From a virus (Duplodnaviria; Caudoviricetes), in the IMG/VR virus record IMGVR_UViG_2551306162_000001, positions 1 to 64,000 of that record: 64,000 bases of DNA. One strand, 5' to 3'. Every line of letters starts with the position of its first letter. Position 1 is the first letter of the stretch. Positions 61,604-64,000 of this stretch are shown here, in pieces. A model generated the notes under the pieces. It was not told where the DNA came from and made no database searches. It saw nothing but the letters and a program-made list of their open reading frames with translations. Position numbers and translations under genes: made by a program.

Positions 61604-61683
61604 TAGACAGGTCGTAAATTACGACCTATAGTTAGTGATGTCAGCAGGGCAGGCAAACGGCCAGCCCTCACCCCCAGAGGGAG
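61604..61683 (+). promoter_or_regulatory. Promoter, palindromic operator and leader hairpin, copy 1
   Basis: TAGACA-GGTCGTAAATTACGACC-TATAGT; hairpin at 61647-61667. Confidence 0.85.
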
Positions 61684-61689
61684 CATCCG

Positions 61690-62310
61690 ATGACCACCAC
61701 CACCGCCGGCACCTGGAACAACCGCGTCGACAGCTACGCCGTGTCCGTCGGCCAGACCATCATCGAAAGCCTCGGCGAGTTCGCCAACGAATACGACATC
61801 GACGCCATCGAAGGCGAGTACCGCGCCGCGATCGACGCCGCGCTGCCCGAGGGTCTGCAGCTGGTCGGCGACGAGTTCATCGCCGAGCTCGACGCCGACT
61901 ACAGCGGCTACCCGGCCAGCGACGACGGCCGCCTCGACATCAAGGCCATCGTCGACGAGATCGATTTCTGGGCCATCGCCGAAAAGCACGAGGCCCCCTC
62001 CGTCTGGATCTACGAGGACAACTCCGGCGCCGTCTACATGGAGCGCGGAGGCGATGCCTGGGCGATCGGGCCGGTCACCGGCGACCTCGAGGGTCAGGCC
62101 ACCGAGCACGCCAAGGCGTGGAACGCGCGCGACTGGGAGCCCAGCGAGGACGATGGCCAGACCCGCATCGCCGTCGCGCAGCTCGCCGACCTCGTCCACA
62201 TCGCCACCTGGAACATCAACACCGGCCTCGACGTCGAGCGCGACGCCTACAGCGACCCCGTCGCGGGCGCCGGCGGCCGGGCGTTCCTCGGCGTCGACTC
62301 CGGCAACTGA
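61690..62310 (+). CDS. Highly acidic protein, candidate anti-defence factor
   Basis: About 41 D/E versus 11 K/R; first gene after a strong promoter. Confidence 0.75.
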   Translation: MTTTTAGTWNNRVDSYAVSVGQTIIESLGEFANEYDIDAIEGEYRAAIDAALPEGLQLVGDEFIAELDADYSGYPASDDGRLDIKAIVDEIDFWAIAEKHEAPSVWIYEDNSGAVYMERGGDAWAIGPVTGDLEGQATEHAKAWNARDWEPSEDDGQTRIAVAQLADLVHIATWNINTGLDVERDAYSDPVAGAGGRAFLGVDSGN

Positions 62311-62316
62311 CCCCAC

Positions 62317-62350
62317 ATGGCCGCTCGCCCTCCCCCGGGTGAGCGGCCAT
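62317..62350 (+). terminator. Intergenic hairpin
   Basis: ATGGCCGCTCGCCC/GGGTGAGCGGCCAT; no U-tract. Confidence 0.5.
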
Positions 62351-62370
62351 TCCCACCTTAGGAGCGCCTC

Positions 62371-62802
62371 ATGCCCACCAACCCCGCCGAGACGTCGGAA
62401 CTCGACCTAGAGGGCAACCCGATCGGACCGATGACCGCGGCCGAGTTCAAGGTCGTGCGTGAGTACCTCGGCCTGACCACGAGGTGGCTGTCCGAACAGT
62501 TCAACGTCGACGAACGCAGCGTGCAGCGCTGGGAGGGCGGGCAGCGCGTCATCCCCGAAGCTGTCCGCGAAGCCATGGAAGCCCTGGAGGCGCACGCCGG
62601 TGAGATGGTCGGACGTCTCGTCGCCGTGCTCAACGACATGGCCGAGCCCGCGGTGCTCACCTACCGCACCGATCGCGAATTCCACCAGCACTTCCCCGAG
62701 GAGACCCGTCCGGCCGCGTGGCATCGGGCTGTGGTCGCCCGCGCGGTCCAGGAAGTGCCGGGCGTGTCGATCGACTACTGGAGCAGTGATGCAGCAGGCT
62801 GA
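62371..62802 (+). CDS. Aca2/YdiL-like DUF1870 HTH regulator
   Basis: MTAAEFKVVREYLGLT...V..RSVQRWEGG..IP...TYRTD...WHRAVVAR. Confidence 0.8.
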   Translation: MPTNPAETSELDLEGNPIGPMTAAEFKVVREYLGLTTRWLSEQFNVDERSVQRWEGGQRVIPEAVREAMEALEAHAGEMVGRLVAVLNDMAEPAVLTYRTDREFHQHFPEETRPAAWHRAVVARAVQEVPGVSIDYWSSDAAG

Positions 62803-63733
62803 CAGTTTGGTGCCAGGCCAGCAGGTCAGCCTTGGCGAGGCGCTGAAACGAGCACCCGCAGCGCGTACATCGGCGGGACGCATCCGCGCGACCGCCCTGC
62901 CGAAGCTGCGCGACCAGACCCGCCAGTTCACCGCGGCGCCGTCCTACGACGAGAGCTCGGTCAGCGCCGAACCGTTGCTGCCTCAGATCACGCGTCACCT
63001 GGAAATCTCCGAGTTGTACTGGGTTTCGGTCGACATGGCCGCACTGGCAGTGTCGGCCGGTGCGGCACTGGATCTCGACGAGATCGACTTCGACGTCTGT
63101 CTCGCGCCGTCGCGCACCGGCCTGCTGCTGTTCGACGGCGGCGTCGGTGCGGTCACCTACGGAGACATCGACTGCCCTGTCGATGCCGTGTCTTGGGGGC
63201 CGATGGCCGGTGGCCGTGGTCTGCTGTTGTGCTTCTACGTCGCCCGCTGGCGGATCCGCGACGGGCTGAGCGCGGCTGACATCCAGCTCGACGACACGTC
63301 CACCCCGCCGTTGATCCCGATCAGCACCACCGAAGACGTCGGCGCTACCGGTAGCGCCGACCGTCCCGCTGACACAGTGCGGCGCGCGTTGATCGCGACC
63401 TGGCATCTGATGCAGCAGCCCACCGTGGCATGGACCGGCCGGGCCGAACCGGACAAGAAGACCGCTCGCGCCCACGCCCGGCTCGGCAAGGCGGTCGCCG
63501 AGGTCAACATCATCGACCTGCGCCGCCTCTATCAGGCGACCGACCCTGACCACGAGCCGGAGGAGAAACCCGGCCGGTACTCGCACCGATGGGTCGTGAC
63601 CGGACACTGGCGCAACCAGCCCCACGGGCCGGACCGCGCGCAGCGCAAACGCATCTGGATCCCGGACCACGTGAAGGGCCCTGACGGCGCGCCGTTGCTG
63701 GTGCGCGAGCGGGTCAATGTGTGGCGCAGATGA
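62789..63733 (+). CDS. Hypothetical protein with C-terminal GHW motif (possibly AcrVA2/FinQ-like)
   Basis: HRWVVTGHWRNQPHG...RKRIWIP. Confidence 0.7.
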   Translation: MQQADSLVPGQQVSLGEALKRAPAARTSAGRIRATALPKLRDQTRQFTAAPSYDESSVSAEPLLPQITRHLEISELYWVSVDMAALAVSAGAALDLDEIDFDVCLAPSRTGLLLFDGGVGAVTYGDIDCPVDAVSWGPMAGGRGLLLCFYVARWRIRDGLSAADIQLDDTSTPPLIPISTTEDVGATGSADRPADTVRRALIATWHLMQQPTVAWTGRAEPDKKTARAHARLGKAVAEVNIIDLRRLYQATDPDHEPEEKPGRYSHRWVVTGHWRNQPHGPDRAQRKRIWIPDHVKGPDGAPLLVRERVNVWRR

Positions 63734-63781
63734 TGGTTTCGGTCTGCGGCGGGGATTGTGTTCCGGGCTTTCCCGAGAGAC

Positions 63782-63859
63782 TTGACCGGTCGTAATTTAC
63801 GACCTATAGTTGGGTCATCAGCGGGGCAGGCAACGGCCAGCCCCCACCCCCAGAGGGAG
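63782..63859 (+). promoter_or_regulatory. Promoter, palindromic operator and leader hairpin, copy 2
   Basis: TTGACC-GGTCGTAATTTACGACC-TATAGT; hairpin at 63824-63843. Confidence 0.85.
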
Positions 63860-63865
63860 ACCGAC

Positions 63866-64000
63866 ATGGACACCAAGCTCGCCGCCAAGATGATCCCCAC
63901 CATCGCCACCCAGGTCGCCGCCGCCAACACCTACCGCGCCGCCTGCGACGCCGAGACCTTCGCCCGCCGCGTCGCCCTGATCGCCTCCCCCCAGCAGGCC
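63866..64000 (+). CDS. Hypothetical protein (truncated by the window edge)
   Basis: GGGAG RBS; MDTKLAAKMIP... Confidence 0.65.
   Translation, partial: MDTKLAAKMIPTIATQVAAANTYRAACDAETFARRVALIASPQQA

Follow-up and report, generated by a model that had tools for sequence, protein, structure and literature searches.

As described in PMC13551039 (citing Birkholz et al. Nature 2024), Aca2 represses a promoter by means of an inverted repeat and additionally binds hairpins in the 5' untranslated region (5'-UTR), blocking the ribosome site; two Aca2 RNA motifs, "actino" and "proteo", are defined according to the same source (PMC13551039, citing Birkholz et al. Nature 2024). Aca2 loci in which up to three pairs of DNA and RNA sites precede neighbouring operons are known (Feussner et al. 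NAR 2026, PMC13551039). Binding to 5'-UTR motifs is experimental for both Aca2 and Aca1, and the motifs predicted for Aca10 and Aca12 were unbound in gel-shift assays (PMC13551039). A second term of comparison is AcrVA2, which binds the nascent N-terminus of Cas12a and, by bringing about loss of the mRNA, reduces the amount of Cas12a; AcrVA2 homologs, FinQ included, reside mostly in genomes without Cas12a, and FinQ inhibits the transfer of the F plasmid (AcrVA2 preprint). The stretch of DNA analyzed here (the window) spans 64,000 nucleotides, positions 1 to 64,000 of the IMG/VR virus record IMGVR_UViG_2551306162_000001, and makes up the initial 64 kb of contig C146, which is 94,472 bp long. 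At its right end reside two operons, each headed by a similar promoter-operator unit, the first of which encodes an Aca2 homolog. Both operons are probably early transcription units under the control of a single Aca2-family repressor, in a temperate actinophage about 94 kb in size. The Aca2 switch acting on DNA and RNA, its actinobacterial RNA motif and regulons made up by several operons are already published, and the arrangement is not new in kind.

Promoter-operator units and the Aca2-type regulator

The two units, located at 61604-61689 (unit 1) and 63782-63865 (unit 2), each accommodate in about 80 bp a promoter, a palindrome, a bulged leader hairpin and a ribosome site. Promoter 1 (61604-61632, plus strand) is formed by the -35 hexamer TAGACA (61604-61609), the operator GGTCGTAAATTACGACC (61610-61626) and the -10 hexamer TATAGT (61627-61632), promoter 2 (63782-63810, plus strand) by the -35 hexamer TTGACC (63782-63787), the operator GGTCGTAATTTACGACC (63788-63804) and again TATAGT (63805-63810). 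The operator consensus is the 17-bp palindrome GGTCGTAAWTTACGACC, which fills the entire spacer between the -35 and -10 hexamers in both promoters. In unit 1 the ribosome site AGAGGGAG (61676-61683, plus strand), upstream of which a run of C residues is able to pair with GGG, is followed by the ATG of the first gene at 61690; the corresponding ATG of unit 2 is at 63866. Promoters 1 and 2 are the only strong sigma-70-type promoters within the interval 55000-64000 (10 of 12 hexamer matches, 17-nt spacer), a scan of which returned three promoters in total vs. 0.3 expected. At three or fewer mismatches the palindrome is matched twice in the window, vs. 0.03 matches expected from shuffled sequences. 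Its exact copies in the 6.8-Mb genome to which the contig belongs are the two units alone, all remaining genome matches having three mismatches. Exact operator matches found elsewhere, in 2 viral and 34 genome contigs, were rejected as relatives, being single copies in unrelated taxa; neither promoter nor hairpin context accompanies the operator in the two viral matches read, and the number of exact 17-mer matches is close to the chance level in the 596 Gb scanned.

Units 1 and 2 are 86% identical over about 105 nt and lie 2.2 kb apart, as might be anticipated for a recent local duplication which left two copies without shared regulation. This origin is highly improbable. The differences between the units lie outside the -10 hexamer, the operator, the stems and the ribosome site, which have been kept while the flanks diverged. 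A Nocardia genome shares both the two-unit arrangement and a homologous cargo gene in the second operon, and loci with several units recur in other lineages in association with other operators. Several units were found in the Nocardia loci L042, L051 and L176 and in locus L090; the latter has three units, all of which feature hairpins of the GGGC type found in this phage. Some 40 related loci of actinophages and prophages have the same layout as the two units, and shared control of both promoters is the reading retained here.

The candidate regulator is a 143-aa protein encoded on the plus strand at 62371-62802, within the first operon. It matches the PF08965 profile (Aca2_YdiL, formerly DUF1870) with a score of 26.2 bits (cut-off, 23.8), its residues 21-117 being aligned to profile positions 1-99 of 118, and also matches HTH_31, phrog_664 and phrog_955. 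Its top three matches among PDB sequences are all Aca2 (7vjo, E 4.3e-5; 8w35, E 7.9e-4; 7b5j, E 0.013), with alignments covering residues 17-111, i.e. the helix-turn-helix (HTH) and most of the second domain. By sequence comparison the protein is a true member of the Aca2/YdiL family of HTH repressors, with ERSVQRWE as predicted recognition helix. About 47 close homologs were found in Nocardia, Streptomyces and metagenomes, and homologs also carry PF08965. The protein is rare in genomes: of 400 that were sampled within the same class, 3 have it, besides the genome of the window. Nothing was found when viral contigs were searched for loci with the single protein; an alignment-based scan added 56 viral and 80 metagenomic aca2 loci.

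The comparative loci were scanned only for 8-1-8 palindromes abutting a TAnnnT hexamer, and 44 distinct sites were detected on the aca2 strand vs. 3 on the other strand. The operator varies by lineage, and with each version the neighbouring Aca2 homolog has a different recognition helix. The operator CTTCCTAA goes with the helix RTVRHWE, CACCCTAA with RTVRSWE, G/TGTCGTAA with ER(S/T)VQRW, TGTCATAA with ERSVNRW, and operators starting with CCCCAC with D(T/S)(L/V)RRWE. Co-variation of this type is expected if the adjacent Aca2 homolog reads the operator DNA, and supports the view that the 17-bp palindrome behaves as the predicted operator of the 143-aa protein. The correspondence of operators and helices provides a directly testable DNA-recognition code (e.g. 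GGTCGTAA of the QR type vs. CTTCCTAA of the RH type).

An earlier note on this DNA, made from the letters and their translations, had described two near-identical units of about 80 bp, a palindrome occupying the whole 17-bp spacer and a conserved leader hairpin in each of them, and a regulator of the HTH plus DUF1870 type; it also had unit 1 heading the genes for an acidic 206-aa protein, the regulator and a 314-aa protein, and unit 2 driving a further gene. All of this was borne out, and its account of Aca2 as a repressor working through promoter inverted repeats and a 5'-UTR stem-loop agrees with PMC13551039. The scan of the rest of the phage which the note had proposed yielded no third exact operator. 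Its broader proposal, a multi-promoter regulon under dual DNA and RNA control, has gained operator/helix co-variation, hairpin covariation and agreement with the literature; binding to either site is a prediction from sequence.

The leader hairpin

Leader hairpin 1 (61647-61667, plus strand) begins about 7 nt past the transcript start, inferred to lie near 61639, and has the structure GGGC-A-GGC-AAACG-GCC-A-GCCC, that is a 4-bp stem, an A.A mismatch, a 3-bp stem and the loop AAACG. Leader hairpin 2 (63824-63843, plus strand) has the same stems and A.A mismatch, and the loop AACG. Both were recognized by R1, a covariance model derived from a MAFFT alignment of 60 leaders from which the GGGC-type lineage of the window had been left out (61643-61692, 33.7 bits, E 5e-8; 63820-63868, 24.3 bits, E 3.5e-5). 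Together with a structure-aware scan, the covariance model replaced an earlier MAFFT alignment (A4), in which the shorter stem of the window lineage was misaligned. On the full 94-kb contig R1 finds exactly the two units of the window, the next best match having E 0.066, and therefore the phage has two hairpin units and no more. A weak R1 match at 57208-57257 was rejected as a unit, being a plain GC-rich hairpin following a stop codon. No Rfam 15 family was found at either unit, nor for the hairpin motif.

The bulged hairpin is found at 41 of the 44 operator-defined sites, starting 9-13 nt past the -10 hexamer (chance about 0.01 per site), and at none of the three palindromes on the opposite strand. 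Its 4-bp stem is followed by a mismatch of two purines (nearly always A.A), a second stem of 3-4 bp, and a loop which starts with A and ends with G. Pairing in helix 1 reaches 98.9% in the 60 leaders, and three of its pairs change on both sides. Covariation of helix 1 was equalled in none of 500 shuffles, the same result was obtained with 74 model hits, and pairing collapses when the partners are slid. For example, the outer stem occurs as GGTC:GACC, GGGC:GCCC or AGTC:GACT, the inner stem as GGGG:CCCC, GGC:GCC, GCC:GGC, GGGA:TCCC, GGGC:GCCC, GGAG:CTCC or GGT:ACC, pairing being kept in all variants. G.U pairs are seen on the sense strand only, which points to a hairpin acting as RNA, not as DNA. 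A second small hairpin, presenting the ribosome site, is about 80% paired in Streptomyces-type loci and weak in this phage. Comparison of the leaders supports the notion that the hairpin is a conserved RNA element, and it is probably the published actino-motif.

Some observations weigh against control of the leader by Aca2. Its folding stability, taken by itself, is ordinary for GC-rich leaders (z -0.8 to -1.7); the case for the hairpin rests on comparison. The hairpin sequence resembles neither the DNA half-site nor any variant of it. Moreover, it is nearly constant across lineages in which operators and recognition helices change, so that recognition via the same helix is not obvious. Finally, the metagenomic locus L143 (1254-1330) has a CTTCCTAA operator and a promoter, without the leader hairpin. 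L143 is a natural variant suited to separating DNA-level from RNA-level control.

The near-constancy of the sequence would also suit a hairpin which works as a 5'-terminal stabiliser, or as a site for a host factor or an RNase, and travels with the promoter type, Aca2 acting on DNA only. The distance of about 7 nt from the inferred 5' end is the classic place of stabilising stem-loops, L143 works without a hairpin, and the lack of binding reported for the Aca10 and Aca12 motifs goes in the same direction. We regard this explanation as unlikely. The purine-purine mismatch, the first A and the last G of the loop are invariant in about 70 distinct sites, which is suggestive of recognition by sequence and not of a purely stabilising function; Aca2 and Aca1 do bind 5'-UTR motifs experimentally, the actino-motif has been reported for aca2 operons (PMC13551039), and on the contig the hairpin is found only with the aca2 locus. 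Recognition of the hairpin by Aca2 is the preferred reading, and the near-invariant bulged hairpin provides a defined RNA ligand for testing RNA binding by actinobacterial Aca2 proteins.

Cargo genes and genomic setting

The first operon encodes, in this order, an acidic 206-aa protein, Aca2 and a protein of 314 aa. The gene of the latter (62789-63733, plus strand) starts 14 nt before the end of aca2, which it overlaps. The protein has more than 145 homologs, and many of these, among them homologs 40-52% identical to it, carry precomputed matches to PF26125 ("AcrVA2-like"); a copy found in a Streptomyces albus prophage (40% identity) is likewise located behind an Aca2 homolog. In the ESM Atlas the protein falls into clusters of the AcrVA2 family (score 0.98, template modelling score 0.72). 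An AlphaFold model with a predicted local distance difference test (pLDDT) score of 85.5 gave as its top three Foldseek matches the AcrVA2 structures 7ci1/7ci2 (E 2e-3, probability 0.85). Alignment of the model to the AcrVA2 structures by VIA-align yielded Z scores of 9.8 (7ci1) and 9.1 over 202-211 residues; the best match has a root-mean-square deviation of 4.2 A over 202 aligned residues, and the next unrelated row a Z of 4.5. A profile of 34 AcrVA2-like homologs found no match among PDB sequences. Three residues, R267, H273 and W274, do not vary among the same 34 homologs, and H266, W268 and R275 hardly vary. According to the model, and in line with the PF26125 matches of its homologs, the 314-aa protein has the AcrVA2 fold and is a member of the AcrVA2-like family. 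Earlier considered unrecognised, this cargo protein can no longer be called so. A toxin-antitoxin reading, in which the HTH protein would be the antitoxin and the overlapping gene the toxin, was set aside because the downstream gene has the AcrVA2 fold; the finding that an AcrVA2-like gene lies directly downstream of aca2 in only 9 of 143 loci was also counted against it. In Corynebacterium phage phi16 (L005, 3491-5244) and Bifidobacterium phage BigBern1 (L003, 3743-5436) the 3' end of the AcrVA2-like homolog is overlapped by the gene for a tyrosine recombinase, about 290 aa long; in phi16 this enzyme is additional to the annotated integrase.

The acidic 206-aa protein (61690-62310, plus strand; isoelectric point 4.05, 41 D/E vs. 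11 K/R residues) sits where acr genes stand in acr-aca2 operons. Two modules, each about 100 aa long (residues 2-102 and 104-204), are fused in it, and both also occur as free-standing proteins (376 cluster representatives altogether). The N-terminal module adjoins aca2 in 20 of 143 loci, is directly upstream of it in all 18 examined, and is modelled with pLDDT above 90 over residues 1-100. The acidic 'YGTW' module family, for which a confident model was obtained, is the commonest first gene behind the switch in actinophages. Between the acidic gene and aca2 is a 14-bp GC-rich hairpin (62317-62350, plus strand; -33.6 kcal/mol, z -4.9), none of 200 shuffled sequences folding equally well. All 18 related loci that were examined have a stem-loop at this place, behind the first gene, and its sequence differs among them; such a stem-loop may act as a partial terminator or a 3' stabiliser, keeping the first cargo protein in excess of the repressor.

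The second operon extends over the window edge. Its first gene (plus strand) encodes 60 aa, from 63866 to position 64048 of the contig (window edge at 64000), and is followed by a GC-rich stem-loop (C146:64056-64077) and, beyond the window edge, by a gene for an acidic 99-aa protein (C146:64099-64398). The latter protein is 60% identical to the product of the gene found at the same position behind the second unit of a Nocardia locus. Neither the 60-aa nor the 99-aa protein has a Pfam or PHROG match. The genes in first place after a unit are highly variable, 71 of them forming 29 clusters; acr-aca loci usually combine a conserved regulator with variable cargo.

Whether such cargo may counteract host defences was weighed against the content of the host genome (6.8 Mb, 312 contigs, 99.99% complete). 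No Cas1 was found, and no Cas3 above the cut-off. Cas12a (TIGR04330) was not found either, a weak negative in that the model matched none of the control genomes. A crude scan of the host genome for CRISPR arrays found none, the repeats flagged being rejected as ordinary tandem repeats. Two results weigh against a counter-defence role of the cargo. The 206-aa protein matches no solved or anti-defence fold (best Foldseek E 0.19, VIA Z 4.0), and no match was found in Pfam, PHROG, PDB sequences or the ESM Atlas. In addition, an anti-CRISPR role in this host is doubtful, and the anti-CRISPR part of what the earlier note had supposed, cargo of anti-CRISPR or anti-restriction proteins, is not supported here by the scans. 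As no Cas1, Cas12a or CRISPR array was found, the target of the AcrVA2-like protein in this host would not be Cas12a. The lack of Cas12a argues against an anti-Cas12a function, not against membership in the AcrVA2-like family.

The regulon may be real and its cargo directed not at host immunity but at competitors of the resident phage, which would be held off by superinfection exclusion or through inhibition of rival elements; the AcrVA2-like protein would then act like FinQ, lowering the expression of genes of a rival plasmid. A host without CRISPR-Cas markers fits this scheme, as do the prevalence of AcrVA2 homologs in genomes without Cas12a and the inhibition of F-plasmid transfer by FinQ (AcrVA2 preprint). 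The location of the homologs points the same way. The AcrVA2-like homolog lies between the lysis genes and an integrase in phages PFR1 and phi16, and adjoins an integrase in the S. albus prophage, where genes expressed from prophages are typically found; in phi16 and BigBern1 it is overlapped by a second tyrosine recombinase. We nevertheless consider a role confined to competitors rather improbable. Expression from a strong promoter under self-repression comes in a burst and is then shut off, a pattern which fits counter-defence in the entry phase better than steady expression from a prophage; those members of the Aca2 family that have been studied to date control anti-defence genes (PMC13551039). 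Both roles of the cargo are compatible with each other.

From its gene content the whole contig reads as a temperate siphovirus-type phage. It encodes an integrase (79-1410, minus strand), an LGFP-amidase lysin (7524-8588), an open reading frame (ORF) of tape-measure size (1919 aa), a P22-type coat protein, a large terminase and an SPP1-type portal about 50% identical to that of Gordonia phage Cafasso, and carries 11 tRNAs. Encoded towards the right end are an exonuclease, two DNA methylases and a CI-like repressor. Genes lie almost all on the minus strand; the interval 55457-64398 is a plus-strand island, at the end of which the two-operon locus resides. The GC content is 67.6% in the phage setting vs. 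71.6% in the 6.8-Mb genome. A nucleotide search of positions 60000-64000 against phage records gave no match. The contig is entirely phage, with the integrase at one end and the CI-like repressor near the other, and shows neither a terminal overlap nor a flanking host gene; possible readings are a free replicon and a prophage that was cut at the attachment sites. Downstream of operon 2 are a Cys-rich ORF of 102 aa (C146:64422-64730, plus strand), possibly a zinc ribbon, the coding status of which is uncertain, and, convergent with the operon and overlapped by this ORF at its 3' end, the gene of a 400-aa HTH_3 plus TPR regulator (C146:64698-65900, minus strand; phrog_5823, E 2e-67), the architecture of which is reminiscent of peptide-sensing regulators.

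Proposed mechanism and comparison with known systems

The order of events which we infer is the following. When the phage DNA is first transcribed, the host RNA polymerase would fire the two near-consensus promoters, each leading into a first gene and then into a strong stem-loop. As Aca2 accumulates, a dimer would bind the 17-bp palindrome filling the spacer, and both promoters would be shut. By analogy with published Aca2, the protein may also bind both mRNAs at their 5'-terminal bulged hairpin, and this would limit translation once the copy number of the template rises. The cargo proteins are most likely weapons against host defences or rival mobile elements, and the AcrVA2-like protein probably lowers the expression of a specific target protein other than Cas12a. 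Tentatively, the 'YGTW' module family and the AcrVA2-like protein could disable a non-CRISPR immunity or a rival element of CRISPR-less hosts of the Mycobacteriales type, 'YGTW' being a new anti-defence class, the AcrVA2-like protein destroying the mRNA of its target via the nascent peptide, and the stem-loops keeping the cargo well in excess of the repressor.

Taken by itself, the switch adds little to what has been published; its value lies in the cargo genes it marks. With high specificity, it marks in hosts without CRISPR a few early phage genes probably used in conflict, namely those of a protein with the AcrVA2 fold, of a widespread acidic two-module family without known fold, and of two small proteins.

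The 143-aa regulator has homologs, 37-47% identical to it, in two cultured actinophages, encoded by gene 48 of Mycobacterium phage Typha and gene 87 of Streptomyces phage Gilgamesh. Both are annotated as 'helix-turn-helix DNA binding domain protein', without regulatory annotation, and the cargo genes differ; in Typha, gene 48 is close to an integrase.

The 314-aa protein shares with AcrVA2 of Moraxella bovoculi (7ci1, 7ci2), FinQ and PF26125 the predicted fold over residues 36-297, a similar length, conserved Trp/Asp residues near position 80 and a conserved His/Arg-rich C-terminal strand, HRWVVxGHWR. The residues required for activity in AcrVA2 are H286, R288 and H291, to which the C-terminal His/Arg residues of the 314-aa protein may correspond. 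As is the case for AcrVA2 and FinQ homologs, its gene is located in a mobile element, in a genome without Cas12a. In contrast to these likenesses, the protein is just 5-13% identical to AcrVA2, and the N-terminal part, which binds the target, has diverged.

The closest parallels are with the aca2 operon of Pectobacterium phage ZF40 and the operons carrying the actino-motif. Unlike in these, the operator is here a single 8-1-8 palindrome that takes up the spacer entirely, the main hairpin does not resemble this operator and the second hairpin, at the ribosome site, is weak; a large AcrVA2-like gene follows aca2, and the host has no detectable CRISPR-Cas. As in these, an HTH repressor of the Aca2/YdiL family is encoded inside the operon it is predicted to control, the promoter contains an inverted repeat, a structured RNA is interposed between transcript start and start codon, small variable genes lie upstream of aca2, and extra operons are preceded by the same pair of DNA and RNA sites.

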